From: a virus
DNA length: 64,000 nucleotides
UHGV virus genome: UHGV-0020956
Direction: 5' to 3' (one strand)
In this document: one piece after another, positions 19,365-63,042 of the stretch
Position numbering within the stretch: the first letter of the stretch is position 1
How the letters are laid out: each line of letters starts with the position of its first letter
Notes under the pieces: model-generated
Told to the model about the DNA's origin: nothing
Databases searched by the model: none
What the model saw: the letters and a program-made list of their open reading frames with translations, nothing else
Made by a program: the position numbers and the translations under genes

Positions 19365-19883
19365 TTATTTGCCTTTCTTTTTCTCTACGAACTCGACATA
19401 ATCTGGTTCAAGCATTTCAGCTAATCTTTTTTGTTTTCTTACTCTTTTTTGCTTTTCTATCATTACTTCTCTTTGAAATTCTGGTTTTACGGCTTCTTTT
19501 ATTTTAGCCGCTGACTTATTTTTTACCTTTAATGACGGTTCAAGGTTATTTAAATATCCTTTGAGATATTCAGAGGTTTTAAATCTAACCATGTACGTCA
19601 ATGGTATCATAACGTTATTTTTCTGCTTCGTCTGAATATTATATACTCTCTTGATTGCTCCACCGCATGTGGAAATCTTAAAAGTACCAATATTAGGAAT
19701 ATTGAAATAACCGTTATTCTTTATTTCGTCTGCCATAATTTCAATAAAGGTTTTCATGCATAACTTAGCCATTTCAGTTGTGAAACTTGGTTTAGTTTTC
19801 TTAACTGAAACGGCTATCAGTTCTGCGAGTTCGTTAGGGCTTAAAGACTTAACAATGACACCATCTTTATTAGGTCTTGCCAT
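19365..19883 (-). CDS. HU/IHF-family DNA-binding protein with Lys-rich C-terminal extension
   Basis: 172 aa; LSPNELAELIA...FIEIMADEI..GTFKISTCGGAIKRVYN matches HU fold pattern (helix-helix then beta arm). Confidence 0.6.
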   Translation of the reverse strand: MARPNKDGVIVKSLSPNELAELIAVSVKKTKPSFTTEMAKLCMKTFIEIMADEIKNNGYFNIPNIGTFKISTCGGAIKRVYNIQTKQKNNVMIPLTYMVRFKTSEYLKGYLNNLEPSLKVKNKSAAKIKEAVKPEFQREVMIEKQKRVRKQKRLAEMLEPDYVEFVEKKKGK

Positions 19884-19903: not shown

Positions 19904-20257
19904 TTACTCTACAAAAGGTGCATCCTGTGTCTTTTCCTTAACAGTTTCTCTTAACTTCTTAGACATCTTGAATACTGGCTTGGTGTAGTCTGGTGTTGCA
20001 CTTAACTTTCCAATTTCACCAGTAGCAGGATTAATAATACCAGTTCTTTCTGGTCTACCCTTAATGGTAGTGAAATCAATCTTACCAAAGCCGTTCATAT
20101 CAAACTTCTTACCAGATGCAATGCAAGTAGCGGCAATCTCATAAAACGCAGTCAGAACAGCCTTTGTGTCCTTCTGAGTAGCCTGTGCCTTATATGCTAC
20201 CATTTTTACTAACTCTGCGGTGCTAACCTTAGATACCTTAATTGCTTTCTTTGCCAT
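19904..20257 (-). CDS. HU/IHF-family DNA-binding protein
   Basis: 117 aa; STAELVKMVAYKAQATQKDTKAVLTAFYEI...GFGKIDFTTIKGRPERTGINPATGE is a near-canonical HU motif (GFGKF..R..R.GRNP.TGE). Confidence 0.7.
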   Translation of the reverse strand: MAKKAIKVSKVSTAELVKMVAYKAQATQKDTKAVLTAFYEIAATCIASGKKFDMNGFGKIDFTTIKGRPERTGIINPATGEIGKLSATPDYTKPVFKMSKKLRETVKEKTQDAPFVE

Positions 20258-21299: not shown

Positions 21300-21974
21300 T
21301 CAATCATTTTCGTGTAATTTCTTTAAATTTTTTATTATTAAATCACCAACAACAGCCCAACAGAAATATTTATTCTTATTCTTTCCATAGCACAAATCAA
21401 GCATGATATTAACAAGTCTATCTTTGTTTGGACAAATTTCTTCTGCTCTTGCTCTAAATTCTTGCTGAATACTCATAATTCTTGTATTTGCATCTTCTGT
21501 ACTTAAATTCTTTTCAATCACAATTTTCTTAAACTGTTTAATACGTTTGATATATTCTTTTTCAAGATTTTCAATATCCTCTTTTGTTTTAGGTGAGCTT
21601 CTCTGAATAGGAGATTTAAGAAATTCATAATCAAAGCCTTTAGATTTAAGTTCTGCCACTCGACCATCAAATTCACTTTCCACATATCGGCAAATTCGGT
21701 TCATAGTAGAATTAGAAATATTCACAGGCATTTTTATATTATACCATTTTAAAAACTTTTGCTGTTCTTCTGTAAGACTTTGTTTTTCTCTTAATTCATT
21801 TACTTTACAGCCGTAAAGCATAATACATTTAAGGTCACAGTTTTTTATATAACTATCATAATCTTTCTTTAAAGAAGAATAATTATAAATAAAGTAATAG
21901 GGCTTTTTATCTGTTACGATTGCTTTGTCTAATGTAGTGGTACATAGCTTTGGAACATACCAATACTTAGGCAT
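21300..21974 (-). CDS. hypothetical protein
   Basis: 224 aa ORF. Confidence 0.4.
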   Translation of the reverse strand: MPKYWYVPKLCTTTLDKAIVTDKKPYYFIYNYSSLKKDYDSYIKNCDLKCIMLYGCKVNELREKQSLTEEQQKFLKWYNIKMPVNISNSTMNRICRYVESEFDGRVAELKSKGFDYEFLKSPIQRSSPKTKEDIENLEKEYIKRIKQFKKIVIEKNLSTEDANTRIMSIQQEFRARAEEICPNKDRLVNIMLDLCYGKNKNKYFCWAVVGDLIIKNLKKLHEND

Positions 21975-22191
21975 TTCCTTGCATACAATTCCTTTTAGTT
22001 TCCTTTATACCCTCTGTCACCAGATATTTATTAAGGGAGTAGACTATCTCTTCACTCAATATTTCTATTAAGGTTCGGCACTTCCAAACAAGGAATTTCA
22101 CCTTGAATGTACTGGTTTCATAATCTTTGTATAAAGACCGTATACCATAGTCGTTACACCGTTCAAAAACGTCACCGTTTAAGCTTGGCAC
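21967..22191 (-). CDS. hypothetical small protein
   Basis: 74 aa ORF overlapping next gene start. Confidence 0.3.
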   Translation of the reverse strand: MPSLNGDVFERCNDYGIRSLYKDYETSTFKVKFLVWKCRTLIEILSEEIVYSLNKYLVTEGIKETKRNCMQGNA

Positions 22192-22293
22192 GGCATTGAG
22201 TTTAATGTGACTTTTCCACCGTTAGCAAGATTTTTATAATCTCACACCCTGCATTTACAGGTTCACCGAATTTTACTTGAACTCAACAAAAAG

Positions 22294-24084
22294 TCAATCC
22301 AAGGTATTTTGCTGATATAACTGTCCACACAAAATACGTTTTGATAATTCTTTATATTCATTTGTATTTTCATTAAGCAACGCTAATTTATCTATCTGTG
22401 CCGATACTCTATTAGTGATTGTACCTACCTCTGAGCCTAATCCCATACGGTTACTTTTCCTAATATCGTTTCTTTTAACAACTTTTTTCTCACCTTTACG
22501 TTGCACACAATCAATAGCATTTGTATATTTATAAGCACTTAAAAGTACGTTATTATTAGTAGAATATATAGAGTCGCTGTCAAAATCGCTCCCGTTCAAA
22601 GCCATACATATAGTATCCCAATCATTCAATATCATCATTGTATTTAAATATTTATACCATTCTTTGCATTTTTCATTATTACTTACTTTCATTTTCCTAA
22701 TATTATTATGAGAAGTCATTGGAGAACGAAAACAAACCACCTCGTTCACACCTTTATCTATCCAATATTGTGAATAAATTTCGTTAGCTTTCAATAATCC
22801 AGTAACTTCCAAACTATATATACTTTGCATTAAAGCATAAGGGTCACCCATAATAATCTGATAATTCCCCTCAACTTTTAATTTTCCAATCTTAGCTTGA
22901 TTAATCTTTTTCTTAATCATTTTGTTAATTCTGTCAATCACATAAGGGTCATTCATCATTCTTTCGTCCAAATATAACGCTTGTGCATAATCTTTAGTTT
23001 TAGTTTTTTCACCAACACCTAAAAATTCTTTTGTTTTTTGATAATCTCCGGCAAACGCCATTTTCAACCAATCAACAGTAGGTTTACATAATTCTATAAT
23101 CTGCTCGTCTGTCAGTTCATAACTTTGCAAATACTGATAATTTGTTTCTCTTGTATCCTCTAACTTTTTAGGTGTTACCTTTGTAGCAGAAAACCTATAT
23201 CCGTTTTCATAATAACACTTGTGGTATTCTTCCCAACTTGAATAATTATCCCATAGTTTAAGACTGGATTCAGTGATAATCATATCTATATCTCGAATAT
23301 CTCTTTCAGTACCCCAAATGTCTTTTACTTTATATCCTTTACCAACTTCCTCAGCAAATTTTATAATCTCAAAAACGTTTAACATACCTTTCAGATAAGC
23401 ATTTCTTAAACAAATACCACTTGGCAGATAATCAAGACCTAGTTTAGCAGCAACTCTTTGCATATATTCTGGTGTACAAAGGTTCATACCGTCACTACCG
23501 TTGTTTTCTAAGTCTGCACCAAATTTTTCCTCAACGATAGGTTCGTCTGTTTCACTATCATCAATCCTAACCACATCACCCTTAAACTTAGTGATACAAT
23601 CTCGTACAACCAATACAGAGCGTGGTTCTGGTATCTCAACGGATGCTGAATAGGTCAGAGCAATATAAGCCTCTAATTTAGCTGGTATGGCTTTGTAATC
23701 TTTCTTTCTGCCACAATCAGTCCTCTTAATCAACTCTGGTAAAATATCTTCTCTCACAAACAGCAAAGTGTTATTTTTAAGACCGCCAGTAGTTCCAACA
23801 GCCCACAAAAATCTTTTACCATTTAAAATCACACCTGTTTTAGACGTAACCTTGTCATAATCACTCATTGAGGAAATCTCCACAGCAAGCATTAAATCCG
23901 TCATATCTTGCTTGTACCGCTTGCTACCCACAATTAAATCTATCAGTCGAAACGCTTGTGAATCAAACAAGTCAATCAATTCATCTAAACGAACTGCCAA
24001 TTCTTTAGATAAAGTAATCTGCCAGTTGTTCATTCGGAATCGTTCAGACGAAATCTTGAAAATCTTTCTACGCTTGTTTTGCAT
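22294..24084 (-). CDS. large hypothetical protein, first gene of leftward operon; contains N-x-x-D-F-D-x-D motif
   Basis: 596 aa; LNGSDFDSDS near C-terminus resembles the NADFDGD metal-binding signature of multisubunit/YonO-like RNA polymerases; otherwise no recognisable domain. Confidence 0.35.
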   Translation of the reverse strand: MQNKRRKIFKISSERFRMNNWQITLSKELAVRLDELIDLFDSQAFRLIDLIVGSKRYKQDMTDLMLAVEISSMSDYDKVTSKTGVILNGKRFLWAVGTTGGLKNNTLLFVREDILPELIKRTDCGRKKDYKAIPAKLEAYIALTYSASVEIPEPRSVLVVRDCITKFKGDVVRIDDSETDEPIVEEKFGADLENNGSDGMNLCTPEYMQRVAAKLGLDYLPSGICLRNAYLKGMLNVFEIIKFAEEVGKGYKVKDIWGTERDIRDIDMIITESSLKLWDNYSSWEEYHKCYYENGYRFSATKVTPKKLEDTRETNYQYLQSYELTDEQIIELCKPTVDWLKMAFAGDYQKTKEFLGVGEKTKTKDYAQALYLDERMMNDPYVIDRINKMIKKKINQAKIGKLKVEGNYQIIMGDPYALMQSIYSLEVTGLLKANEIYSQYWIDKGVNEVVCFRSPMTSHNNIRKMKVSNNEKCKEWYKYLNTMMILNDWDTICMALNGSDFDSDSIYSTNNNVLLSAYKYTNAIDCVQRKGEKKVVKRNDIRKSNRMGLGSEVGTITNRVSAQIDKLALLNENTNEYKELSKRILCGQLYQQNTLD

Positions 24085-24249
24085 ATAACGTTTTAGACCT
24101 CCTTTTATATAATTATTATATATATTATTATTACATATTAATGTTATAAAGTCAATATATATTATTATAATTTATTATATTATAAATATTTATGTTATAT
24201 ATAATATATTATATATATAATTATTAAAAAAATAATAAAAAAAGGGAGT

Positions 24250-24355
24250 CAAACTACACAAATTGCTAAATTTACCGTCATAGTGGAACAAAAGACGCTT
24301 GTCGGCTTTTGGAACGCTATAGGTAAATTTCGTTCTATGCAATTTGTGTAGTTTG
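24250..24355. promoter_or_regulatory. long interrupted hairpin/cruciform in divergent control region
   Basis: perfect 17-bp inverted repeat caaactacacaaattgc (24250-24266) / gcaatttgtgtagtttg (24339-24355) with nested aaatttacc/ggtaaattt pairing; followed by GC-rich hairpins to ~24470. Confidence 0.5.
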
Positions 24356-24510
24356 AAACTGCAAGCATATTTCAAGGAATTGACGTGCCTGTGGCACGGC
24401 AATGACTGCTATTTGCGGCAGTCCCCTAAGCCACTGCATAACCCACGGCATAAAGAACCAATAACGATTTACATATTTATATTAATATTATATAATATAT
24501 ATTATACCCC

Positions 24511-24539
24511 TTGACATATTCTATATTATATGATATAAT
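24511..24539 (+). promoter_or_regulatory. sigma-70-type promoter for rightward early operon
   Basis: TTGACA-17 nt-TATAAT, consensus hexamers. Confidence 0.6.
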
Positions 24540-24582
24540 CGGAGTATGAAGTTGATTAATAGTAATGGAAAGTATTAAAAAT

Positions 24583-24659
24583 TTAAGATTTTTTGTACGT
24601 CAAATGTTACAAGTAGTAATTTTTATATATTATAACATTTATAGTACAAAAAATCTTAA
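24583..24659 (+). promoter_or_regulatory. 16-bp perfect inverted repeat in 5' leader (operator or attenuator hairpin)
   Basis: ttaagattttttgtac (24583-24598) / gtacaaaaaatcttaa (24644-24659), 45-bp spacer, between promoter and first early gene. Confidence 0.45.
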
Positions 24660-24715
24660 AACATTATAAATTTTATTTGCTTTATTTACAATTTAACATA
24701 AAGGAGGAAAATAAA

Positions 24716-31029: not shown

Positions 31030-31102
31030 TGGGCGTTCGGCAAGCGGCAAAGCCACAGAGTTTTGATCTCTGCACCCACTGGTTCAAATCCAGTACGCCC
31101 AG
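31030..31102 (+). tRNA. tRNA-Gln (anticodon UUG)
   Basis: hand-folded cloverleaf: 7-bp acceptor tgggcgt/acgccca, D-arm with GG, anticodon stem cagag/ctctg, loop ttTTGat, T-arm actgg-ttcaaat-ccagt. Confidence 0.8.
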
Positions 31103-31141
31103 TTTATAAAAAATAATAATTAACAAAGGTTGGTAAACAAA

Positions 31142-31747
31142 ATGGAGAATAAAGTATTAGCAGGTGCGAAACTTGCAGGCGGTAATCCAGAAAACGGAAG
31201 GGTTGAAGATGATTACTACGCAACTAATCCAGAAGCAGTAAAAATGCTGCTGACTAAGTATACATTTGATGCACATACAATCCTAGAACCTTGTGTTGGT
31301 GGAGGTCATATTGCCAATGCGATTAATGATTTTTACACAAATAAACGAGAAATTACAGGATTAGATCTGGTGGACAGAGGATATCCTGGGACAATTGTTG
31401 CTGATTTCCTTACATATGAAACTGATAAAAAGTATGAAGGCATTATCACAAATCCGCCGTATTCATTAGCAAAGGAATTTGTAGAAAAAGGTATGGAGTT
31501 TTTAGAAGATAATGGTCAGATGGCAATGTTTTTAAAAATCCAATTTTTAGAGGGTGCAAAACGAAAAGAACTGTTTGACAAATATCCTCCGAAGTACATC
31601 TATGTTTTTAGAAATCGTATGGCAACTTGGAATAGTGGACTAGAGAAAGACCCAAAGACAGGGAAACGTTGGGCAACAACTATGTGTCATGCTTGGTTCA
31701 TTTGGGAGAAAGGAAGTACGTCTGAACCGGTAGTAAGATGGTTATAA
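31142..31747 (+). CDS. DNA N6-adenine methyltransferase (orphan)
   Basis: SAM motif EPCVGGGHI and catalytic motif IV ITNPPYS; no adjacent restriction endonuclease. Confidence 0.6.
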   Translation: MENKVLAGAKLAGGNPENGRVEDDYYATNPEAVKMLLTKYTFDAHTILEPCVGGGHIANAINDFYTNKREITGLDLVDRGYPGTIVADFLTYETDKKYEGIITNPPYSLAKEFVEKGMEFLEDNGQMAMFLKIQFLEGAKRKELFDKYPPKYIYVFRNRMATWNSGLEKDPKTGKRWATTMCHAWFIWEKGSTSEPVVRWL

Positions 31748-31895
31748 AGAGATAAATAAAGGAGGATGTAATAGATATGGACAAGATAGATAAAATCAAA
31801 AAAGAAATTTTTACATCTATGAAAATTTTGGATGTATCTGTTAGCGGTTAATATGCTCGAAGGTTATGATACCGAAGCCCTACCGCCCAGATATG

Positions 31896-31966
31896 GGAAT
31901 TATAGTGTTGGATACCGTCACCGTAGAGAACCTACAAGGGTAGGGGTTCAATTCCCCTTAATTCCC
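31896..31966 (+). tRNA. degenerate tRNA-like element (possible tRNA pseudogene)
   Basis: good acceptor stem ggaatta/taattcc and T-arm agggg-ttcaatt-cccct, but anticodon arm does not fold canonically. Confidence 0.25.
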
Positions 31967-31981
31967 CTCTTTAAAAATAAA

Positions 31982-32055
31982 GGAACAATATTTCAACTGG
32001 CAGAAAATTCGGCTCATAACCGAAAAGTTATAGGTTCGAGTCCTATTTGTTCCAC
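31982..32055 (+). tRNA. tRNA-Met (anticodon CAU; could be elongator, initiator or lysidinylated Ile)
   Basis: canonical cloverleaf: acceptor ggaacaa/ttgttcc, D-stem tttc/gaaa, anticodon stem ttcgg/ccgaa loop ctCATaa, T-arm atagg-ttcgagt-cctat. Confidence 0.85.
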
Positions 32056-32242
32056 TAGAAGAATAATTAGTATTGAAATACACCACCAAAAGTTATATGA
32101 TAACCTTAAATCATTGTTGCCATACTAATTATTCTTCATAGCACTAAAATAGCAGTATAGTATAACAAAACCACCACCCCTGTTTATACTGTATTGCTAT
32201 TTTTTATTACAAAAAAATATTATTTAAAAAGGAGAAATAAAA

Positions 32243-32610: not shown

Positions 32611-33306
32611 ATGGAAAAGTTACAGGTAAATAAGATTTATAATACAGATTTTAGAGAAGCATTTAAAAACTACGATTTATCTAATGTAAATTTGATAGCA
32701 ACTGACCCGCCCTATAATATAAATTTTAACTATAACAACTATAAAGATAACTTGGGGGGGGTAGAGTATATTAGCTTACTAAGCAATTTTAAAAATTTCC
32801 CAACAGCTATAATTCATTATCCAGAAGAAATGATGAAATATGTTGTACCTGCGTTGGGCGTGCCTAATGAGGTTTGTGCTTGGTGTTATAATTCTAATTT
32901 ACCTAAACAATTCAGATTGATTAACTTTTATAATGTAAAAGTTGATTTTAATAAAGTAAAACAGCCATATAAGAATCCAAATGACAAAAGAATAAAAGAA
33001 CTGATAGCAAAAGGTAGTAAAGGTTCAAGATTGTATGATTGGTTTTCTGATATACAACTTGTGAAAAATGTATCCAAAGAAAATATCAATCACCCTTGTC
33101 CTGTTCCAGTAGAACTAATGGAAAGAATTATTTTATTGACCACAAATGAGGGAGATATAGTATTAGACCCTTTTATGGGTTCTGGTACTACGGCAATAGC
33201 TTGTATAAACACTAAAAGGAATTATATAGGTTTTGAAATAGATAGAGATTATTATTTATCTTCTCTGGAAAGAATTGATAAACACATTAAAAAAAAGGAG
33301 AACTAA
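32611..33306 (+). CDS. beta-class DNA methyltransferase (N6-adenine or N4-cytosine), orphan
   Basis: motif IV ATDPPYN near N-terminus and motif I DPFMGSGTTAIAC near C-terminus (beta-class order). Confidence 0.7.
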   Translation: MEKLQVNKIYNTDFREAFKNYDLSNVNLIATDPPYNINFNYNNYKDNLGGVEYISLLSNFKNFPTAIIHYPEEMMKYVVPALGVPNEVCAWCYNSNLPKQFRLINFYNVKVDFNKVKQPYKNPNDKRIKELIAKGSKGSRLYDWFSDIQLVKNVSKENINHPCPVPVELMERIILLTTNEGDIVLDPFMGSGTTAIACINTKRNYIGFEIDRDYYLSSLERIDKHIKKKEN

Positions 33307-34546: not shown

Positions 34547-34561
34547 CAGACCACATTTTGA

Positions 34562-34600
34562 AACCCCTTAGTATAAACAAGTACAAGGGGTTCTTTTTTA
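34562..34600 (+). terminator. rho-independent terminator ending the early operon
   Basis: aacccctt...aaggggtt stem followed by TTTTTT. Confidence 0.7.
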
Positions 34601-35689
34601 TTTCCAACCAAGTTATCACAATCAGAACAAAAATCCCCTATACCCACTTTCTACGGACTGTTACCACCCTAAATCAGAACAAATCCCCCTAACTCAGAAC
34701 ACGTAAATCCACCCCATATTGCAAAATGCCACACAACGTCCAAGGGAACATTTATTTGCAATGTCTTATAAATTGGACACCTAGAACAGTAATAAAAACC
34801 ATTTAAGCCCTAAGACATTGCAAATCGCACATTCAAAAACGCCTACGCAGAAACCATTACATTTATACCCATGGGGGTATGGGTACTTTTCGCCAATAGT
34901 TCTTTTTAGAACCAATTTTTCGTTATTCATAATTTTTAATAACGCTCAGTGAATTGACAAGACAACTGACATTACAGGTGACAAGACAGTTGGCAAGACA
35001 ATTCTTAATTCTCCACTATGGTTATGATAAACCACACTCCCCAAAATCTAACCACCTACAAATACTCCCCTATACCGTTACAAGTCATTTAAAGACCCTT
35101 ACAAACGGTTTTAATAAGCAAGAAGATTAAGTTATCATGTGCGAACCGAAATGCTCACATTTGCCTTGTACTAAAAAGTGACACCTTGTTATGTTCCCCA
35201 AACCCCTACAGGAATAATAGTCAAACATTAAACCAGTATACCGGTATACGGCGAATGACCCTTAACCCCGGTACACAATCACCCCCCTATCAGATAATAT
35301 GTTATCTATTGTGAAGAGTAGATGATTAAGAGATAGAATTGCAAGAATTATAAGAGTAGATAAGGGATAAGAGGATTGAGGACTGGATAATATGTTGGCT
35401 ATTACATACTCGTAAATGTTATTCCACGATACCGCCTACGCCTATGAAACCACTAGGCATAAAGAGCAAAATGATACACACATTTTCGTCACATATATCT
35501 TAAATACTCTTAGACGATTTACTGTGTGTTATTGTGGTGAGAAATGGTATGAAAAGTATAGGGATTGAGAGTGGCGCAAAAGTGGAGTGTGATAGGGTAT
35601 GGGGATATGTCTTATCGTGTGTGTGCATTATATATAGTTATATATCCAGATTGAGATAGATGAATAAAATATGGGACAGATTGTAAGAG

Positions 35690-36075
35690 TGAAGAGTAGG
35701 TTAATTGGGATAATGATATGATGTGGGTTATAGGTATCATGAGTAAAAGGTATGTATGAGGGGGATATTGAGGGAAGAGATAAAAGATATGGGTGAGAGT
35801 GTGGATAGGGGATAGTGAAGAGATAATAAAAGATAATTGAGATAGGATATGGGGATAGGAAAGAGGCGAGAGGTTGATAAGGATAATGAGAGCAAGAGGT
35901 AAGATAAGTGATAAAGAGTGAACTGGGGGGTTGGGTGCTAAAGAGGGGATTAGGGGAGAACTGGAAAGGGAAATTGAAGTTGATGAGAAGTTGGGAAGTG
36001 AATGAGGGAACGGGAGGAACGAATGGGAAACATGAGGGTGAAATATTATAAAACTGATGGGTGGGAGTGTGAGGT
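35690..36075. repeat. C-depleted (G/A/T-only) block on top strand built from GGATAA/GATAAG/TGTGGATAG motifs
   Basis: about 11 C in ~390 nt by eye; repeated GATA(A/G)G units. Confidence 0.7.
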
Positions 36076-36219
36076 GTATCAGCTATGCCGAGGGTGCGAA
36101 AATCGTATATACGAATTGTCTGAAAATACCCCCAGTTAGGCATGACTAATAGAACAACTGTTCGACTTGTCCAGGGGAGGGGGCGGTATAGTCTGCTTGC
36201 ACCGGAGCAGAACGCCAAA

Positions 36220-36254
36220 AAACGTGTCTATAATAAATCATTATAGACACGTTT
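36220..36254. repeat. perfect palindrome (15-bp arms, 5-nt loop) at the symmetry centre of the two compositional blocks
   Basis: aaacgtgtctataat-aaatc-attatagacacgttt. Confidence 0.8.
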
Positions 36255-36419
36255 GTATGCAAGCGGTTGCACAAAATTGCATATTGCGTTGCATATAATG
36301 GAAAGTATTAGCGAAAGTGATATTTTTTTATAGATATATTTACAGGAGTTATAAGTGTATGTTAAAAAAGTGACGTAATAAGATAATGTTATATATGTGA
36401 TACCATATACCAGTATTAA

Positions 36420-37040
36420 CCATTATCCCTTATCTTCTATCCTCTGCTTTCCCGTCTTAATGTTTCTTAATGTTTCATGTGAAACATGTGTAATATATTT
36501 TATCCAAATCAATTCATATTTATATCGCATCACGTTTCCGTTTTTCCATCTTCCCATACCTTATATATACCATCTTTCATTCTTCCACCTATCAACCCAC
36601 TTTCCACCCGTCCATGCATCCCACTTTCTGCCAGATCCGTTTCGTTCCAATTCCGTTTCCGTTTCCGCTTATCCTAGTTCCCACACTTTAACATCTTGCA
36701 ATCATTCCCACTTGCTACCATATCGCATACTACTTTACATATATACTCATACCATATTATCACATACGCACATTACTTTACATAGTAACCATAACCACTC
36801 ACATAGTATTCAATACTACTTATAACGCTATTCACATTCTATAACACATTTTCCAATACTATCTCATATCCCTATTAATCCACTATGTTAATATGCAATC
36901 AATAACCCATTATCCCTATAGGTTAATATGTAAATCATAAATCCTATAACCCACTAACATAGTAGATTAATATATTATCATAAACCCACTTGCTTACTAT
37001 GTAATAAGCATTTTATAAACCTATTAACACACTATGTTAT
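36420..37040. repeat. G-depleted (C/T/A-only) block on top strand built from TTATCC/CTTATC motifs (reverse complement of left block motifs)
   Basis: G fraction by eye ~5%; TTATCC at ~36425, 36503, 36670, 36910; spurious long ORFs arise because only TAA stops are possible. Confidence 0.7.
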
Positions 37041-37992
37041 TGAATTGATATACAATTTATTAAGTTATTGCTATTGTTACCATTTTAGACAATACTTTTA
37101 TCACAACGGCTCAATTTTAGTCGATAGCTTAAAGTTATATGAAAACTATAGTTATTTAAGCAATAATGATACACATTAAAACGTCTAATATATATATTAT
37201 ATATGGCACGAAAATGTATGTGCTATTGTTTGCAAAATTGCTACAATTTTCATTATGTTAGCACAACTCCAATTTTTCGGTTTACATAAGGCGTAAATAT
37301 TCAGACTCAATTTGAATTTTAGATTAATTCAACTGTGCTTATTAATAAGTGGCATTTTTAATAAGTATATCTAATAATAAGTGGCAAGTGATAGTATGCC
37401 ATAAATGGTCAAATGCCGTTTAAAGCCCCTAGAAGCCATTTTAAGACGTTTTGGGGGCGTACCCTTATATTTTATCGCTGAACCTTTTCCAATGGAAACT
37501 ATGTTATATAGTATTGAAAACTATGTAATTATCTGACAATTTAGCGCTCATAAGTGGCAAGTGCTAGTAATTAGTTTGATACTCAAATGTTTTAGCAATC
37601 AACTGTATTGAGTGCTAACAAGTAAACATATGTGAACCGTTGCCATATATGAATAGTTGCTAACTATGAATTGTAAATAAATGTTTACTAACGGGCTTCT
37701 GGCATAAAGCAGATCACTTTGTATAGGCAGTGGGCTTACTATGCTTACTTATATATATGTATACACGCATAGGGCTTTATATGTGGGCTTGCGTATGCTT
37801 TTATATGGTATCCTGCTTTTTGTAAATCCCTTTATATAAGGAAGTGATACAATCGAACAAATGTTTTTTATGAAAAGTTTTTTATGAAAAGTGTATAGAA
37901 AATATACGATTTTTTGGTAGTTTTTACTATTGAGTATATCTATACATTTTGTTATAATCGATTTATCAAAAAAGATAAAGGAGAAAAAACCA

Positions 37993-38273
37993 TGTTAAAA
38001 TTTTATGCAAATAAGAAAGAAGCAAATTTAATTGAAAGATTGATTTATTGGTGCAATGAATTATCTTACAATATAGAAAGAAGTCCAGAAGATACAGAGT
38101 TTACTAATAAATGCAATAAAGAAATCAGATATTGTATGGAAGATTTACAAAAAATAGGCGTTTCAAGATATATTATTAAAAAATGCGTTAAAATAGGGCG
38201 TGACTGGCGTAAATGCTATAACAACTATTTAAAAGAGTTGTTAAAAGTAGAAAATATCTATATTCTACGATAA
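37993..38273 (+). CDS. hypothetical small protein (Cys-rich)
   Basis: RBS aaaggagaaaaaaccATG; 93 aa; own terminator follows. Confidence 0.45.
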
Positions 38274-39474: not shown

Positions 39475-40755
39475 ATGTATACTATCACAAATACACAGTG
39501 GTCTTTTAAGAAAGTTGCAGAGGAAATGAAAAAAGGAACTATTGATTTTAAGTGTGGTGGTGCGCAAAGAGGATTTGTTTGGGATAAAGCAAGACAGTCT
39601 TTGTTTGTACATTCTGGACTTAAAGGAGATCTTATTCCTTGTTTGTATATTCGTAGAATTATTGAGAAGGAAGTTGAACAGTGTGAGGAAGCCATCAAAG
39701 AAGTAAAAAAAGTAAAATATGTTTTTGAAACGAGGGACGGAAAACAAAGATGTACTACGATTTTAAAGTTTATTAATAATGAGTTTAAAACTTCTGGTAT
39801 TCCAGAGTATGAAGAAGGGGACAAACTTGATTATAGAATTGAACGCAACGGTGAACTTGTAAGCCCCAACGGTATTGGTTTTGAGGATTTAACAGAAGAT
39901 GAAAAATTGGACTTTTTAACGCGTTCTATTACTGTTTATTATATCGACAACGCAACGGACGCAGAAGCAGATATGATTTTCCTTAAGTTAAACAATGGAA
40001 AAGCATTGACTACCGCAGAAAGGAACAGAGCAGAAGCAAAGTCAAGAGGTGAAATCATTGATATTGCGAACCATGATATTTTTAAGCTGATGTTTAGCGA
40101 AAAAACGTTAGATAATAACGCATTTGATACCGTTGTAAAATCTTATATTATGTTAAATAATGATAATCCGTCACTGCTCAATAAGGACGTTAAACCGTTA
40201 ATGAAATCTATTGATATTACAGAAGCGGATAAAAAGGAGTTAAATGATATTTTTGATTATATTTTAGAAACTCACAACGTTCTGGAAAGTAAGAAAGTTA
40301 AAAAAAGAATTATTGGAAAGACAAGTTTCTTATCTTTAATTCCAGTTGCAGAACAGGCGTTAAATGATGGAAAGATTGCAGAAGAATTTGCAAGTTTTCT
40401 TGACAAGTTTTTCTCTGGAAAGACAACTAAAGAGCCAACAATCAGTACAACTTATAACGAAAACTTCTTTGATTCTTCCGCAAGCAGAATGAAGATTAGA
40501 TTAAGACACAACGCACTTATGAACGAATACGAAAGATTTTTCAATGGTGAAATTGAAAACGTATACAGTGAAAATGCTGAAGATTTACAGGAAGAAATTG
40601 ACGAAGCAGAAACCGTGGCAGAATACATTGATATTGACGAATTGAGTAAACCAGATGAAGAAGTGCAGACAGAGGAAAACAAAACAGATGAGCAGATAGA
40701 AGAAGCTACAGAACAGGAAACATCTGTAGAAGAAGCAGAAACAGAAGTATTTTAG
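39475..40755 (+). CDS. DUF262 (ParB-like nuclease/NTPase domain, GmrSD N-terminal type) protein with acidic C-terminal tail
   Basis: 426 aa; GGAQRGFVWD and DGKQRCTT correspond to the (I)xFQR..VW and DGQQR signatures of DUF262; C-terminus EEVQTEENKTDEQIEEATEQETSVEEAETEVF. Confidence 0.65.
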   Translation: MYTITNTQWSFKKVAEEMKKGTIDFKCGGAQRGFVWDKARQSLFVHSGLKGDLIPCLYIRRIIEKEVEQCEEAIKEVKKVKYVFETRDGKQRCTTILKFINNEFKTSGIPEYEEGDKLDYRIERNGELVSPNGIGFEDLTEDEKLDFLTRSITVYYIDNATDAEADMIFLKLNNGKALTTAERNRAEAKSRGEIIDIANHDIFKLMFSEKTLDNNAFDTVVKSYIMLNNDNPSLLNKDVKPLMKSIDITEADKKELNDIFDYILETHNVLESKKVKKRIIGKTSFLSLIPVAEQALNDGKIAEEFASFLDKFFSGKTTKEPTISTTYNENFFDSSASRMKIRLRHNALMNEYERFFNGEIENVYSENAEDLQEEIDEAETVAEYIDIDELSKPDEEVQTEENKTDEQIEEATEQETSVEEAETEVF

Positions 40756-42895: not shown

Positions 42896-43729
42896 ATGGC
42901 AAAAAATGTATATGAAATGGTAACAGATAGAATTATTGAAGAATTAGAAAAAGGCGTTATTCCTTGGAAAAAACCTTGGAAAAGTATTTCCAACGGAGCA
43001 TATAACAGAGTAAGTAAAAAACCTTATAGTTTACTTAATCAGCTTATGCTAAAGCATGAAGGAGAATATGCAACTTTTAAACAGTGGCAGGAAATGGGCG
43101 GAAAAATCAAAAAAGGAGCAAAGTCTGAATTTGTAGTGTTCTGGAAAATGTTAGCAGTTGAAGAAGAAAAAGACGGTGCTACTATTACAAAGACAATACC
43201 AATGTTACGGTATTACAACGTATTCCACATTTCACAGGTTGAAGGCGTTGAACCTTTGGAAACTGTAGAAGCTACACACAATGAACCAATAGAAGAAGCC
43301 GAAAAAGTGAAAAATGGTTATAGCACTAGGGAAAATATCCAGATCATAGAAGAAGTCGGAAATAAAGCATTTTATAGTCTTAGTGGGGATTATATCTGTA
43401 TCCCGTGTAAGGAGCAGTTTGAAAAAATCAATGAATACTACAGCACTGCCTTTCATGAAATGGTTCATAGTACTGGACACAAGAAAAGACTTGATAGATT
43501 AGTTAATGCCAAGTTTGGAAGTGAAAAGTACAGCAAAGAAGAACTGGTAGCAGAAATAGGTTCGGCAATGATTTTAAACGAACTGGGAATTGAAACATCA
43601 GATACATTTGAAAACTCTACAGCTTATATTCAGAGTTGGTTACAAGTTTTAAAAAATGATAGTAAGTTTATTGTTAGTGCTTCTGGAAAAGCAGAAAAAG
43701 CAGTAAAGTATATCTTAGGAATTGAATAA
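42896..43729 (+). CDS. ardC: ArdC-like antirestriction protein (N-terminal ssDNA-binding domain plus zincin-like metalloprotease domain)
   Basis: N-terminus VYEMVTDRIIEELEKGVIPWKKPW is the ArdC-N signature; C-terminal HEMVHSTGH HExxH motif. Confidence 0.8.
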   Translation: MAKNVYEMVTDRIIEELEKGVIPWKKPWKSISNGAYNRVSKKPYSLLNQLMLKHEGEYATFKQWQEMGGKIKKGAKSEFVVFWKMLAVEEEKDGATITKTIPMLRYYNVFHISQVEGVEPLETVEATHNEPIEEAEKVKNGYSTRENIQIIEEVGNKAFYSLSGDYICIPCKEQFEKINEYYSTAFHEMVHSTGHKKRLDRLVNAKFGSEKYSKEELVAEIGSAMILNELGIETSDTFENSTAYIQSWLQVLKNDSKFIVSASGKAEKAVKYILGIE

Positions 43730-47138: not shown

Positions 47139-47942
47139 ATGACAAATATTACAAGATTTTTAAATGGTTTAAAGAGTGAACATACAAAGGTAGCATACGA
47201 GAATGATTTAAAACAGTTCTTTGATTTTACTGGTAAAGACGAAACTGAAATCACTTATGCTGATATTTACGATTACAAAGTGTCTATGAGTGAGTACAGC
47301 AGTGCTACAACAGCACGTAAACTGACAGCTATTAAATCCTATTTCAATTTTCTTTCTGACATGGAATTTATTTCTACTAATCCTTCTGCTAAAATCAAAA
47401 TTCCAAAAGTAAAGAATCACGAAAAAGAATATATCCCTATGGACGAAGCAAAGAAATTATTAGACGTTGCTAAATCCCCTAGAGATAAAGCTATCATTGC
47501 ATTATATCTTTCAACTGGTATGCGAGTTAATGAACTGGTGAATTTAACTGTAGAGCAGTATGAGAAAGATGAAATCGTATTTATTGCTAAAGGTGACAAG
47601 GAAAGAAAAGTATATCTTAATGATAAGTGTAGAGGATATATTAACGAATATTTAAAAGTTCGCAAAAATAGTGGTATTGATAATCTGTTTGTAAGTAATT
47701 ATGGTACACCTATGCGACATGATTTAATTGCTAAAATGTTAAAGAAAAATGCTAAAAAAGCAGGATTAAGTGAGGATATAACTAATCATAGCTTAAGGCA
47801 CAGCTATGTTTCATGTATTTGCGACAACTATGGTATTAATGTTGCGAAAGATGTTATAGGGCATAGTTCAACGAGAATTACTGAAAAATATGCACATAAT
47901 ACTCAAGATACAATTAAAAATGCCATGGTATCTGTTTTCTAA
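47139..47942 (+). CDS. tyrosine site-specific recombinase (XerC/D-like integrase)
   Basis: 267 aa; GMRVNEL (box I Arg), HSLRHSYVS (H-x-x-R), GHSSTRITEKYAH (catalytic Tyr). Confidence 0.8.
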   Translation: MTNITRFLNGLKSEHTKVAYENDLKQFFDFTGKDETEITYADIYDYKVSMSEYSSATTARKLTAIKSYFNFLSDMEFISTNPSAKIKIPKVKNHEKEYIPMDEAKKLLDVAKSPRDKAIIALYLSTGMRVNELVNLTVEQYEKDEIVFIAKGDKERKVYLNDKCRGYINEYLKVRKNSGIDNLFVSNYGTPMRHDLIAKMLKKNAKKAGLSEDITNHSLRHSYVSCICDNYGINVAKDVIGHSSTRITEKYAHNTQDTIKNAMVSVF

Positions 47943-50399: not shown

Positions 50400-51434
50400 A
50401 TGGCAGACGAAAAGAAAAGAAATAATCCACTTTTAGACCTTGAAATTGAAGAAATGGTAGGAGGTTTAGCTGGTCAACGTGTTTTGTTATATTCTGGCAA
50501 TTCATTGGGAAAGACAACACAAGCTATGAAATGTGAAAGACCTTTACTTTTAATGACTGAGAGTGGTGGTAATGGTGTTAGGGGTTATAAAATTGCTATT
50601 AATTCTTGGGCTGATTTTACAACTAATGTAAATTATCTTACAGCACCACAGACAAGTAAAAAAATGCATGAAAAGTTTTTTACAGTAATTATTGATACTG
50701 CGGAGAACCTTGTTGACCTTTGTGAACAGTCTGTATGTAAAGAGTTTGGTGTAAGAGATTTAAGTGAAATTGAAGGAAAATCTAATGGTTATAAGATTGC
50801 TAGACGTAAATTTGCAATGCAGATTAATAAACTTACATCACAGGGATATTTTATTATTTTCATTGCTCACGAGGAAGTTGACGAGAATCACGTTGATGAA
50901 TTAACAGGTGAAACTACAACTTTTGTTCAGCCTAAAGGTTCTGGAAATGTTAAATCTTCTATGCGTATGATTAGAGATATTTGTGATTTTACAATTTATC
51001 TTAAATCAAATGGTATCGACCCAGAAACAAATGAAACAATAATGTCTACTGGTATTTGTAAGCAGACTTCTCATGTATTTGCTAGAAGCAGATATGCTAT
51101 TCAGACATTCATTGACCCATTTACTGCAAAGAATATGTGTGACGCAATGGAAAAAGCTATTAAGAAATCTGCTGAAAATGAAAATATTGGTCTTACTACA
51201 TTTAAGCCTTATGAAAACGTAACAACTAAAGAGGAATGGTTAGCTTTAATTCAGCCATATGTACAGAAACTTTGGAAAACTTATCCAGAATATATTAATC
51301 AAGTTGTTGCCGACCAGTTAGGAAAGGGTAGGAAGATTAGTTCTGCTACAGATGATGAACTTGCTTGTCTTGAAAGTATTTATAATAATTTTGTGGACTT
51401 CTGTTGTGACAGAGGAATTGTTGTAGAGGTGTAA
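50400..51434 (+). CDS. RecA-like AAA ATPase, Sak4-like recombinase candidate
   Basis: Walker A LLYSGNSLGKTTQ; Walker B-like IIFIAHEE; ~340 aa. Confidence 0.45.
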   Translation: MADEKKRNNPLLDLEIEEMVGGLAGQRVLLYSGNSLGKTTQAMKCERPLLLMTESGGNGVRGYKIAINSWADFTTNVNYLTAPQTSKKMHEKFFTVIIDTAENLVDLCEQSVCKEFGVRDLSEIEGKSNGYKIARRKFAMQINKLTSQGYFIIFIAHEEVDENHVDELTGETTTFVQPKGSGNVKSSMRMIRDICDFTIYLKSNGIDPETNETIMSTGICKQTSHVFARSRYAIQTFIDPFTAKNMCDAMEKAIKKSAENENIGLTTFKPYENVTTKEEWLALIQPYVQKLWKTYPEYINQVVADQLGKGRKISSATDDELACLESIYNNFVDFCCDRGIVVEV

Positions 51435-52658: not shown

Positions 52659-54164
52659 ATGCTTTATTCAGCGTCAGATGCTTCAATGTGTTTGGGGGTA
52701 TTATTACAGAATCCCTCTTTAACAATCAGTAAGAAGTTCCCTATTAATTCAGATGATTTTAAACCCATTTTATTCCATGAGATTTTATATAAATCTATAT
52801 CATGGTTATTTAAAAATGGTGCAGAACAAATAGACGAAATTGTTTTGGATAAATTTTTACAGAATTATCCAGAACAGTTAGAGGTTTGTACAGATAACAA
52901 TTATCTTGAATTTATAGTAACTATTAAGAAATTGGTTAATGTGGATAATTATGAACTGCATTATAATATTATTAGAAAATATAGTTTACTTAGAAAAGCT
53001 AAAGAATTAGGTATTGACATTACAGAATTTTATGACGAAACTAAACCAGAAGAAACAGAAGTAGAAAAGTTTAATCGTTTTTCCATGCAAGAAATCCTTA
53101 ATAAGATTGAGGGCAAAATGACCTCTCTTAGAATGGAATTTAATACAGAATTATGTAGAGAAACATTAAGAGCAGGTGATAAATGGGAAGATACTTTAAA
53201 TGGTTTTGAAAGTGAACCTGTTATTGGTGCTATACTTCAAAGTAAATATTTAACTACTTTATACAGAGGTTGGCAAAGAGGACATTTATTATTAAGGTCT
53301 GGTTCATCTGGACAAGGAAAGACAACAACTTCCATTGGTGATTTATGTAATGTATGTGCTAATCGTTATTGGGATTTTGACGAAGAAAAATATGTAGATA
53401 ATCCTTATAAATCTGGTGATGGATTTATGATTAATACAGAAATGGATTTATCAACTGAAATTCAACCTAAATTTATCTCTTGGATAAGTGGTGTTCCATA
53501 TCATAAAATCCTTGACGGAAAATATAATAAATTTGAAAAAGAAAGACTGATTGAAGCAGGAAAGATTCTTTATGAAAGTCATATTGAATTATTCGACCAA
53601 CCAGATTTTACAGCTACAAAGTTAAAAGAAATATATCGTCAATGTCATTTATGGGGAGCAAGTTATTGTTTTTTCGATTACATTTGGGATAATTCAGAGT
53701 TTGGAACTGAATATAAACAAATGACAAGTATTCCAATTCGAGAGGATAAGGTTCTTTTCCAGATTGCGACTACACTTAAAAGTTTATCTGAGGAATTTAA
53801 TATAGGTACTTGTACTGGTACTCAGTTAAACGGTAAAGAGCAAGAAAATGAACTTTTAGATGAAAGATGTATTTATGGCTCTAAACAGATTAAGACTAAA
53901 CTAGATAATGGTGCTATATTATCTTTCCTTAGACCTAAAGAGTTGGAACTTGTAGATACTTTAATTAATCGAAAAGGTTTTGGAACCAAGAAAAGACCTA
54001 CACATATTCTTCATAATTTTAAAACAAGATTTTCACGTTATGGACAGAATATCAAAGCATGGATTAATGTGGATATGGGAACTGGTAGAATAAGTGATTG
54101 CTTTTGCACAGACCAATATAATCAGCCGATTAACGTAGATAAGACAGATATTAAGTTAGGTTAG
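52659..54164 (+). CDS. DnaB-like replicative helicase
   Basis: N-terminal DnaB-N-like region (ASMCLGVLLQNP..FHEILYKSI..GAEQIDEIVLDKFL) and Walker A LLRSGSSGQGKTT. Confidence 0.6.
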   Translation: MLYSASDASMCLGVLLQNPSLTISKKFPINSDDFKPILFHEILYKSISWLFKNGAEQIDEIVLDKFLQNYPEQLEVCTDNNYLEFIVTIKKLVNVDNYELHYNIIRKYSLLRKAKELGIDITEFYDETKPEETEVEKFNRFSMQEILNKIEGKMTSLRMEFNTELCRETLRAGDKWEDTLNGFESEPVIGAILQSKYLTTLYRGWQRGHLLLRSGSSGQGKTTTSIGDLCNVCANRYWDFDEEKYVDNPYKSGDGFMINTEMDLSTEIQPKFISWISGVPYHKILDGKYNKFEKERLIEAGKILYESHIELFDQPDFTATKLKEIYRQCHLWGASYCFFDYIWDNSEFGTEYKQMTSIPIREDKVLFQIATTLKSLSEEFNIGTCTGTQLNGKEQENELLDERCIYGSKQIKTKLDNGAILSFLRPKELELVDTLINRKGFGTKKRPTHILHNFKTRFSRYGQNIKAWINVDMGTGRISDCFCTDQYNQPINVDKTDIKLG

Positions 54165-54851: not shown

Positions 54852-55976
54852 GTGATATTGTTGGAAAAGGGTTTTAAGTATAGAATTTATCCAAATAAGA
54901 AACAGCAAGAGTTAATACAGAAAACGTTTGGCTGTTGTAGATATGTTTATAATTATTTCTTAGATAAAAGAATAACTGAGTATAAAGAAAATAAAAAGAC
55001 TTTAAGTTTTTATGATACAAATAAAATGCTTACTCAATTAAAGAAAGAAAACGAATGGCTTAAAGAACCAGATAAAAATGCTTTGCAAATAGCGTTAAGA
55101 AATTTAGATAAAGCTTATAAAAAATTTTTTAAACAACAGTCTGGCTATCCTAAATTTAAGTCTAAGAAAAATAATTATCAATCTTATACTACAAGTTGTA
55201 ATAAAAAAGTGCATAAAGATACAATAAGGATTGAAAACAAACATATCAGACTTCCAAAATTAGGTTTTGTAAAAATTCGTGATAAACAAGTTCCGCAAGG
55301 AAGAATACTTAATGCTACTATATCGCAAGAACCAAATGGACATTATTATTGTTCGTTATGTTGCACTGATATAGAATTTCCACAATATCCAAAAACAAAT
55401 AAAAATGTTGGAATAGATTTAGGAATTGTAGATTTTGCAATCTTATCTGACGGTATTAAGATTAAAAATCCTAGATTTTATGAAAAGTCAGAAAAGAAAC
55501 TTGCTAAGTTACAAAAAGAATTATCGAGAAAAACAATCGGTGGCTCTAATTGGAATAAAGCAAGAATTAAAGTTGCAAAACTATATAAACATATATCTAA
55601 TCAACGCAAAGATTTTTTACAGAAATTAACTACTAATTTTGTAAGACAATATGATATTATTTGTATTAAAGATTTAAGTATTAAATCTATGAAAGAAATA
55701 AGTTCAAAAATTCGTAACAAACATTTGGAAGATGTTTCATGGTTTGAATTTCGCAGAATGTTGACTTATAAATCTACATGGTATGGAAAGATATTATCTG
55801 TAATTGATAGATATTTTCCTTCTTCACAAATTTGTCATTGTTGTGGTGCTAATGGAGGTAAAAAGTCTGTTGAGATTAGATACTGGATTTGTTCTAACTG
55901 TGGTTCAAAATTAGATAGGGACGATAATGCTTCTATTAATATTTTGAATGAAGGAATGAGAATTTTAAGTGTTTAA
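54852..55976 (+). CDS. tnpB: IS200/IS605-family TnpB (RNA-guided nuclease-type transposon protein)
   Basis: 374 aa; N-terminal KGFKYRIYPNKKQQELIQKTFGCCRYVYN; C-terminal Zn finger CHCCG..CSNCGSK and RuvC-III DRDDNASINILN. Confidence 0.85.
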   Translation: MILLEKGFKYRIYPNKKQQELIQKTFGCCRYVYNYFLDKRITEYKENKKTLSFYDTNKMLTQLKKENEWLKEPDKNALQIALRNLDKAYKKFFKQQSGYPKFKSKKNNYQSYTTSCNKKVHKDTIRIENKHIRLPKLGFVKIRDKQVPQGRILNATISQEPNGHYYCSLCCTDIEFPQYPKTNKNVGIDLGIVDFAILSDGIKIKNPRFYEKSEKKLAKLQKELSRKTIGGSNWNKARIKVAKLYKHISNQRKDFLQKLTTNFVRQYDIICIKDLSIKSMKEISSKIRNKHLEDVSWFEFRRMLTYKSTWYGKILSVIDRYFPSSQICHCCGANGGKKSVEIRYWICSNCGSKLDRDDNASINILNEGMRILSV

Positions 55977-61752: not shown

Positions 61753-63042
61753 ATGGGAAAGTTTATAGATATGACTGGTTGGAGAATGTCAGAACATGGT
61801 GTTCCAAATAGTAGGTTGACTGTTATTGAAAGAGCAGAAGATACTTTTAGTCCAAAAGGTTCGAGAATTACTAATTGGAAATGTAAATGCGATTGTGGAA
61901 AAATAAAAGTTATACAAGGTACAGCATTAAGAAAAGGTGTTGTTTTATCTTGTGGCTGTTATCATCTTGAGTTGCTTTTAGCAAGTGTTAAAAGTAGAAA
62001 AATGGTTAATAAATATGTTGATAAAGGTGACTATTTAGAAGGTTATGACGGAAAAGGTAATTGCTTTTTAATTGATAAAGACGATTATAATAAAGTAAAA
62101 GATTACCGTTGGAATATGGACAATCATGGATATTGGTGTTATAGCACTTCTTCTAAAGAAAATGGTCGAACCAGAATAAAAATGCATAAATTGATTTGCC
62201 CCTCACCTTCTAAAGATTTAGTAGTAGACCATTATAATAGAAATCGTTCTGATAATAGAAAAAACAATTTGTTTTTAAAAACACCTAGAGAAAATGGAAT
62301 AAATAAAGAAATTCCTTCTAATAATACTTCTGGATTTATTGGTGTCAGCCAAAGAAAAGACGGGTATTGGGTAGTAAGAATTAATACTGACGTTGATAAA
62401 ACAAGGATGATTAGTAGTTTTGCAACAAAAGAAGAAGCTTTAATATGTAGATTAAACTTTGAAAAATTGTATTACAAAGAAAATGCTCCACAAAGACATT
62501 TATTTGAAGAATATAATATAACAGAAGAAGGTGCAAAAGAATATTGTAATCAAATTTTTAAAAGAATTGATAATACAAGTGGAACAATGGGTGTTTTTAA
62601 AAGAGAAAATAAAGATACATGGCGAGTAGAAATTAGGGTAAAAAATGAAAGAAAAAATTTTGGTAGTTTTACAAATAAAGAAGAAGCTATAAGAGTTAGA
62701 CTTCTTATGGAAAAATATTATTATGGTGACAATGCTTTACAGAAAAATCTTTTTGATAAATATAACATTACTTTAGAAGAAGCTATAAAGTTTCATGATG
62801 ATTTTTATAAAAAGAAAGAAATAGAAAAAGAAAAGAAAAAAGATAAAATAACAGGTGTAAGCTATTCAGAAAAAATAAAAAAATGGGAAGTTTATATTTG
62901 TGTTAATAGAAAAAATATATACTTAGGTGCTTATAAAGATAAGAATGATGCTATTATAGCGAGATTAAAAGGTGAAATAAAATATAGAGGTAAGGATAAC
63001 GCACCACAGAAACATTTATTTAAACAATACGGAATAGAGTAG
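61753..63042 (+). CDS. HNH homing endonuclease with three AP2-type DNA-binding repeats (free-standing)
   Basis: HNH motif VVDHYNRNRSDNRKNNL; AP2-like repeats SGFIGVSQRKDGYWVVRI, SGTMGVFKRENKDTWRVEIRV, KITGVSYSEKIKKWEVYICV; flanked by duplicated gtaggtgataatatg. Confidence 0.75.
   Translation: MGKFIDMTGWRMSEHGVPNSRLTVIERAEDTFSPKGSRITNWKCKCDCGKIKVIQGTALRKGVVLSCGCYHLELLLASVKSRKMVNKYVDKGDYLEGYDGKGNCFLIDKDDYNKVKDYRWNMDNHGYWCYSTSSKENGRTRIKMHKLICPSPSKDLVVDHYNRNRSDNRKNNLFLKTPRENGINKEIPSNNTSGFIGVSQRKDGYWVVRINTDVDKTRMISSFATKEEALICRLNFEKLYYKENAPQRHLFEEYNITEEGAKEYCNQIFKRIDNTSGTMGVFKRENKDTWRVEIRVKNERKNFGSFTNKEEAIRVRLLMEKYYYGDNALQKNLFDKYNITLEEAIKFHDDFYKKKEIEKEKKKDKITGVSYSEKIKKWEVYICVNRKNIYLGAYKDKNDAIIARLKGEIKYRGKDNAPQKHLFKQYGIE

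Follow-up and report, generated by a model that had tools for sequence, protein, structure and literature searches.

The stretch analysed here, 64,000 nucleotides of the virus genome UHGV-0020956 (the window, in whose numbering positions are given), contains a non-coding gap at 34547-37991 that an earlier note had read as an origin-like hub. We confirmed that this gap is the largest in the window and that it holds no credible open reading frame (ORF). Its main feature, which that note had not listed, is a pair of extreme arms of opposite GC skew, laid out in the order C-free arm (G-arm), conserved core, palindrome of 15+15 bp, spacer of ~140 nt and G-poor arm (C-arm; Table 1). The G-arm has 22 C in 561 nt and includes a 128-nt stretch free of C (35739-35866), longer than any other in the window, and the C-arm carries an inverted repeat, ATGTTTCA-TG-TGAAACAT, at 36470-36487. 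Segments of 300 nt with an absolute skew of at least 0.7 were restricted to the arms, save for one at 61551, among all those of the window. Two long ORFs do occur in the gap (35628-36218 on the minus strand and 36397-36825 on the plus strand), both on G-less reading strands; they arise because such strands lack most stop codons. Neither shows 3-nt periodicity and their sequence is not conserved, which ruled out the arms as coding sequence.

The window phage is a large tailed phage with two diverging gene blocks, one running leftward from 24084 and the other rightward from 24677. Among deposited genomes, the closest belong to six Enterocloster bolteae phages of ~100 kb (PMBT24 and the CB457/CB473 series), with ~65% protein identity, while closer kin at ~90% protein identity are found in human-gut viromes and metagenomes; we refer below to an Enterocloster clade and a window clade. 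The layout was present in every related sequence spanning the region, including all six cultured Enterocloster phages as well as ~20 human-gut contigs. Searches with a core motif and with a motif from a second conserved block yielded 4+4 viral and 14 metagenome contigs with this layout.

The sequence of the G-arm is hypervariable, its centre being unalignable even between genomes with 85% identical flanks, and the C-arm, present in all relatives, is 65-80% alignable. Since the G-arm cannot be aligned between close relatives, it is its composition that is conserved rather than its sequence, and the comparison indicates that in the arms selection acts on composition and not on sequence. Both single strands of the arms are predicted to fold poorly, with a minimum free energy (MFE) of 0 to -10 kcal/mol per 150 nt overall (~0 kcal/mol for either strand of the G-arm and -1 to -5 kcal/mol for the plus strand of the C-arm), and the centre between them is predicted to fold strongly (-56 kcal/mol, z -6.4). 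In each arm the G-rich strand showed modest enrichment of the k-mers GATATG and GGGATAT (z 4.5-6.6, dinucleotide null), with no enrichment of the reversed forms in the C-arm, and AT/TA steps were phased at ~10 nt in the C-arms. We rejected a KOPS- or Chi-like signal in these k-mers, which track the coding strand. Simple C-to-T deamination of the transcribed strand was likewise rejected for the arms, because, compared with the genome, they have twice the G and less T. No strong conserved sigma-A promoters leading into or out of the arms were found.

Two sequence blocks only are common to both clades, the core and a 133-nt element (37405-37541) lying within the second conserved block. The core includes the 12-bp palindrome TCGTATATACGA (36103-36114), the box AATTGTCTGAAAAT (36114-36127) and a C-run. 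The near-palindromic box ATTRTCWGAYAAT has two perfect copies in the 64 kb, both within the gap (36114 on the plus and 37528 on the minus strand); each cross-clade block bears one of them, and the two are inverted. In the second block, which also holds two ACTATGTWA copies, the conserved element ends in the box ATTATCTGACAAT (37528-37541, minus strand). This block is not a conserved ORF, since relatives show indels and stop codons. The two copies of ATAAGTGGCAAGTG(A/C)TAGTA given in the earlier note were recovered at its edges, at 37377 and 37550. Four ~16-kb IMG/VR contigs (L024, L026, L027 and L028) contain a 19-mer of the 133-nt element, TTTTCCAATGGAAACTATG, and were considered as satellites, a proposal we rejected; the match sits within a 401-aa ORF and is therefore attributed to chance, as is a match in L010. 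The spacer contains TTGCA(C/T) three times (36267-36294, 10-12-nt spacing), conserved in the window clade and not resembling a canonical promoter.

Table 1 Features of the gap and of its surroundings in the window
Feature	Position	Strand	Remarks
HU/IHF-family (Bac_DNA_binding) genes, adjacent pair	19365-19883, 19904-20257	-	Precede the counterpart of the PMBT24 terminase gene region
YonO-type single-subunit RNA polymerase (SPbeta YonO homologue)	21300-24084	-	Assigned by homology
DNA methyltransferase genes	31130-31747, 32611-33306		Gap flank
Intrinsic terminator	34562-34598	+	GC-rich stem; ends the upstream plus-strand gene series
Left non-coding stretch	34600-35290		C 25.5%, G 12.8% on the plus strand
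15-bp inverted repeat	34754/34811		In the left stretch
Two GATAATATGTT repeats	35290-35403	+	Position kept in the window clade
G-arm	35524-36076	+	553 nt, almost C-free, G ~35%, GC skew up to +0.92
Conserved core	36080-36145	+	CAGCTAT ... TCGTATATACGAATTGTCTGAAAATACCCCC
Central 15+15-bp perfect palindrome	36220-36254		A6 before, T3 after; midway between the inner arm ends
Spacer	36257-36399		76-88% conserved
C-arm	~36400-36900	+	G ~6%, C ~28%, skew to -0.74
Five ACTATGTWA 9-mers	36778-37039	both	Strong local inverted-repeat structure, z -6
Moderately AT-rich stretch	37040-37300		GC 22-25%; 82-92% conserved
Second conserved block	37377-37569	+	Edges are 20-bp direct repeats ATAAGTGGCAAGTG(A/C)TAGTA
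Promoter, strong sigma-A type	37930-37958	+	TTGAGT-17-TGTTATAAT; serves downstream early genes, the first at 37992-38273
GmrSD_N/DUF262 protein gene	39475-40755		Gap flank
ArdC-like anti-restriction protein gene	42896-43729		Gap flank

PMBT24, reported to be strictly lytic and circularly permuted, was called pac-type by PhageTerm on the basis of one significant peak on one strand, and its genome map was made to begin at the pac site (PMC11035940). With the ends of the PMBT24 record joined, position 1 falls at core+281, with the first C of the C-arm 5 nt further on, and BLAST agrees; by alignment this terminus maps to ~36397-36402 of the window, the inner edge of the C-arm. It is the sole experiment-derived datum for the family and indicates packaging, not replication. 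A unique virion DNA terminus at the locus, the mark of a pac site, is on record for the relative PMBT24 only. At a pac site, specific binding sites for the small terminase subunit (TerS) would flank the cut; in the hub the core and the ATTRTCWGAYAAT boxes bracket the putative cut, and polar k-mers lie within the arms. The reading we favour, with a probability of roughly 0.55, is that the gap is the pac region, a packaging-initiation and genome-processing centre of a ~100-kb virulent headful siphovirus of gut Lachnospiraceae related to PMBT24.

In such a pac region the terminase would recognise the conserved core and the ATTRTCWGAYAAT boxes, perhaps aided by the two HU-family proteins, and would then cut concatemers at ~36400. 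Because on either side the G-rich strand points 5′ to 3′ at the centre, every end formed between the arms would have a G-rich, C-free, non-folding 3′-ending strand. The resulting pac ends may be good substrates for the end-handling and recombination proteins of the phage (Sak4-like, SSB-like and RecJ-like) and poor ones for hairpin- or site-dependent attack. A role at ends needs composition and not sequence, which would explain the free sequence drift of the arms. The outer gap would contribute the terminator, the repeat arrays and the early promoter at 37930, and the anti-restriction genes on either side of the hub would fit early entry of DNA near pac. A bolder proposal, which we think unlikely, is that the arms represent a new type of cis-acting element set by strand composition, which would keep the 3′-ending strand at a cut or Xer-type site free of C and of structure, as a 'telomere/dif-like' module steering pac ends towards protection, recombination-primed replication or recombinase-mediated cyclisation.

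A number of observations weigh against the assignment as a pac region. The mapped terminus comes from a relative ~65% identical in protein, it was called by software on one strand, and the direction of packaging is not stated; the one-strand peak of read starts could instead reflect a nick or a replication start. In P22, SPP1 and P1, pac lies in or beside the terminase genes. In the PMBT24 record, which begins at pac, the gene for the large terminase subunit occupies 15032-16930; the window homologue of this region is ~15-20 kb from the hub, so that the hub does not lie in or beside a small-terminase gene as a pac site would. No TerS was identified. As only the first headful of a series starts at pac, end protection would serve a fraction of virions together with the unpackaged concatemer end, and the role in DNA-end handling that we favour for the arms is one we infer. 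The k-mers shared by the arms showed no genome-wide polarity. Nor do the arms form one long hairpin or inverted repeat, their complementarity not exceeding chance, and arrays of G-quadruplexes were rejected because G-runs and G-quadruplex motifs are no more frequent than composition predicts and most arms lack them.

The palindrome between the arms is predicted to form a hairpin of -21 kcal/mol (z about -6) from either strand, followed by U6 on the minus strand and only by UUUG on the plus strand. Its stem is AT-rich, unlike the GC-rich stems of other terminators of the window phage. The right half of the palindrome never varies, and the changes seen in the left half are uncompensated; a structured RNA in the core was otherwise rejected, the palindrome alone being supported and the energy and covariation terms being weak. 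It is either a terminator, better on the minus strand, or a site of Xer/dif type (ATAA-N6/7-TTAT).

As a dif-like site it would be the target of the Xer-family recombinase of the phage, acting to cyclise first-headful genomes or resolve multimers, and the arms would imitate the converging strand polarity around chromosomal dif; we consider this unlikely, although several features point to it. The 267-aa tyrosine recombinase (47139-47942) has Phage_integrase and SAM-like N-terminal domains in the two-domain layout of Xer, its best solved relatives are XerA (2e-29) and XerD, and each of the six cultured, reportedly virulent relatives has a conserved counterpart at 58-59% identity. No palindromic site lies beside its gene, and the palindrome in the hub is ~160 bp from the pac point. 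The palindrome takes the form ATAA-N6-TTAT in the Enterocloster clade (GCATAA-TATGTA-TTATG, CCATAA-TACATA-TTATG) and N7 in the window clade (CTATAA-TAAATCA-TTATAG). One invariant arm and one that varies without compensation are found in dif, and the skew turns at the palindrome from G>C to C>G, as it does at dif. The PMBT24 version matches what we take to be the XerD arm of the B. subtilis dif site at 10 of 11 positions, a lead that rests on ~11 nt. However, this version has no exact copy in 185,579 bacterial genomes, a palindrome with A/T runs is equally good as a terminator, and the polar k-mers shared by the arms are not KOPS- or SRS-like and lack genome-wide polarity. Moreover a lytic phage needs concatemers, and their resolution is not obviously useful.

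The alternative function of the palindrome leads to an explanation in which the central hairpin is an intrinsic terminator and the arms, read outward, give Rho-loading (rut) RNA, blocking transcription across the hub. Read-through in either direction would yield 350-550 nt of C-rich, G-poor, unstructured and untranslated RNA, and the predicted outward transcripts do have a rut-like composition, with C at ~28-35%, G at 3-6%, an excess of pyrimidines and an MFE of ~0 kcal/mol, over more than the ~80 nt that a rut site takes as a minimum. Loading of Rho at rut needs composition and not sequence, which fits arms that are hypervariable and compositionally fixed, and the stability of the hairpin and its U6 on the minus strand also suit a terminator. 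The same order, a terminator and then a C>G stretch, recurs at 34562-35290. We nevertheless regard such a bidirectional insulator as doubtful. All flanking genes are on the plus strand, leaving its leftward half without an obvious job; the coincidence of the pac terminus with the edge of an arm is left unexplained; known rut sites are much shorter and less extreme than the arms; and the AT-rich stem departs from the GC-rich terminators used elsewhere in the phage.

Read inward, the arms could give two convergent purine-rich, C-poor non-coding RNAs ending at a central bidirectional terminator; these might act as RNAs, sponging a host RNA-binding factor for instance. Both G-rich-sense units do end downstream at the terminator, which provides U6 for the leftward unit, and a weak -35/-10 match, TTGTCA-18-AATACT/CATACT (37539-37510, minus strand), overlaps the box and is kept in position in both clades. 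The sense strands of genes in the window phage are also purine-rich. A search against Rfam 15 matched tRNA alone in the window, however, the best E for the gap being 0.59, and we found neither an Rfam family for these RNAs nor conserved structure or covariation beyond the hairpin. Strong promoters are lacking, the G-arm is without conserved sequence and no known bacterial RNA class has such a composition, all of which makes this proposal quite improbable.

The earlier note had taken its repeats, an AT-rich tract and the replication genes downstream as the ingredients of a replication origin. What stood up was a conserved, cis-acting non-coding hub with one clustered repeat family, whereas positive evidence for an origin did not emerge. 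The ACTATGTTA/TAACATAGT iteron-like family is strongly non-random but of mixed orientation and irregular spacing. All seven perfect ACTATGTWA copies of the 64 kb are inside 36778-37528 (2.6 expected window-wide), adjoining a conserved, moderately AT-rich stretch, and spacings of 104, 73, 41 and 35 nt separate the clustered copies. Conservation of the repeats in relatives extends to the window clade, which keeps the 9-mer cluster, but not to the Enterocloster clade. An iteron-type origin in the hub, formed by this cluster (36778-37039) and the AT-rich stretch (37040-37300), or else an origin primed by transcripts through R-loops, is a tentative possibility and may coexist with pac.

Among the points that count against an origin in the hub, DnaA boxes were not enriched in the gap (2 observed vs 1.5 expected). 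The replication genes do lie downstream, but far off (Sak4-like at 50400, DnaB-like helicase at 52659, primase at 56892); they start at least 13 kb away and no initiator gene is adjacent. The AT-rich tract described at 37130-37260 proved to be unexceptional, its GC content of 22% being merely at the 6th percentile of 120-nt windows, and the AT-rich outlier lies elsewhere, at 24100-24240 (~140 nt of 5% GC) in the divergent intergenic region 24085-24676. The AT tract is followed there by a 17-bp perfect inverted repeat, caaactacacaaattgc / gcaatttgtgtagtttg, with its halves ~70 nt apart, and no part of the gap is as classical an origin-like or regulatory site as this region. The arms for their part are more GC-rich than the genome and thus harder to melt.

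In the transcript-primed version, purine-rich RNAs directed towards the centre would stay on the arms as stable R-loops from which DNA synthesis is primed. No hybrid type is more stable than that of purine-rich RNA with a pyrimidine-rich template, and the composition of the arms suits it. A non-classical start is plausible given that no classical initiator gene was recognised, and the one-strand read-start peak of PMBT24 could mark a replication start. Also counting against an origin, no strong promoters are aimed into the arms, and the skew runs from plus to minus, the sign of a terminus rather than of an origin. In Vibrio phage ICP1 a 1.3-kb ORF-less space holds a PhageTerm pac terminus together with a putative rolling-circle origin (PMC7145576), a precedent for pac and an origin sharing one hub.

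In the outer parts of the gap, folding bore out the terminator said to bound it (-14.5 kcal/mol, followed by U6, z -2.96). Downstream of this, the left non-coding stretch shows 74-94% conservation within the window clade and does not occur in this form in the Enterocloster clade. The TCAGAACAAA..CCCC direct repeats reported for it amount to two copies and do not exceed chance, since 52 of 100 shuffles gave at least two, and an iteron-like 12-bp tandem array missing from the earlier note, TGACAAGACA / TGACAAGACANN x3.8, occupies 34955-35000 and is conserved in the window clade only. A 14-bp palindrome was located at 35236-35249 as claimed, and the GATAA-TATG-TTATC repeats correspond to GATAATATGTT at 35293 and 35386, the first copy of which includes TCAGATAAT, half of a ATTRTCWGAYAAT box. 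At the far end, the promoter listed in Table 1 is the sole strong promoter match in the hub and is kept within the clade.

Anti-restriction and methylase genes flank the gap within 6 kb on either side. The region at 45.4-60.8 kb encodes a sigma factor, the Xer-like recombinase and Sak4-like, DnaB-like, primase, SSB-like and RecJ-like proteins. The two adjacent HU/IHF-family genes could encode a heterodimeric DNA-bending factor. The YonO-type polymerase gene, a single 831-aa ORF in PMBT24, where it is annotated 'RNA-dependent RNA polymerase', is broken in the window into ORFs of 596 and 224 aa (21300-21974 and 22294-24084, minus strand) with a 320-nt gap; an intron, an intervening element or a frameshift could account for the split. 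Two distant phages with the same type of polymerase, Thomasclavelia TR-TP1 and MT835481, had no comparable arms in the 30 kb examined of each. In TR-TP1 a segment at ~88860-89560 (L032 29200-29900), G-poor by eye, lies in a gene-free, very AT-rich stretch of ~1 kb that adjoins the homologous recombinase gene just upstream of the YonO-type polymerase, and this stretch may be a mild counterpart of the hub. Mobile-element genes were found in the window at 11175-12128, 16636-18114, 54852-55976 and 61753-63042, their kinds including a GIY-YIG/NUMOD1 endonuclease, a LAGLIDADG-containing protein with helix-turn-helix domains, an insertion sequence (IS)-type transposase and an HNH endonuclease. The window also has a tRNA-Gln(ttg) (31030-31102) and a tRNA-Met(cat) (31982-32055), PMBT24 being reported as tRNA-free; the listed ORF 31832-32128 is probably spurious given its overlap with the tRNA-Met.

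With these results, the largest non-coding region in a little-studied family of ~100-kb human-gut phages, represented by one paper and six isolates, would more likely be annotated as 'packaging/genome-processing centre' than as 'origin-like'. They also bring out a conserved pair of 0.35-0.55-kb tracts, the first with near-zero C and the second with near-zero G, mirrored about the pac point, fixed in composition and drifting in sequence; in the literature on skewed tracts flanking pac we found no description of such a layout. If the arms do act by strand composition, the mechanism would be invisible to motif searches, and a simple skew scan could find others. All the rival readings could be put to a direct test with PMBT24 and E. 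bolteae, which can be cultivated.

The hub shares features with a number of known systems. The arms and rut sites are alike C-rich, G-poor, unstructured and unconstrained in sequence, although known rut sites are ~80-100 nt long and much less extreme. With dif termini the hub has in common a G-rich strand converging on a palindrome of the ATAA-N6-TTAT type, a skew passing from plus to minus and an encoded Xer-family recombinase. Chromosomal polarity is however mild, genome-wide and carried by defined 8-mers (KOPS/SRS), whereas the arms are extreme and span ~0.5 kb per side. ICP1 offers a large ORF-less space with a PhageTerm pac terminus (PMC7145576), but it is an unrelated phage and mirrored C-free and G-free arms are not described there. 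The pacL-pacC-pacR region of Bacillus phage SPP1, likewise a headful siphovirus of Firmicutes, is tripartite with two flanks around a central cut. Its flanks are ~100 bp, have defined TerS boxes and bent DNA and lie inside gene 1, and extreme GC skew has not been reported for them. The pac site of P1 differs in being ~160 bp long, in lying within pacA and in being defined by seven Dam hexamers, where the flanks in the window are 350-550 nt, defined by strand composition instead of a repeated site and ~15-20 kb from the likely terminase genes. P1 nonetheless resembles the window phage in headful packaging, in a cut flanked on both sides by short repeated motifs, in a phage-encoded tyrosine recombinase and in a palindromic site near pac, loxP with Cre in P1 and a candidate here. 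Lying close to pac, the candidate palindrome could place a site at both ends of the first headfuls.

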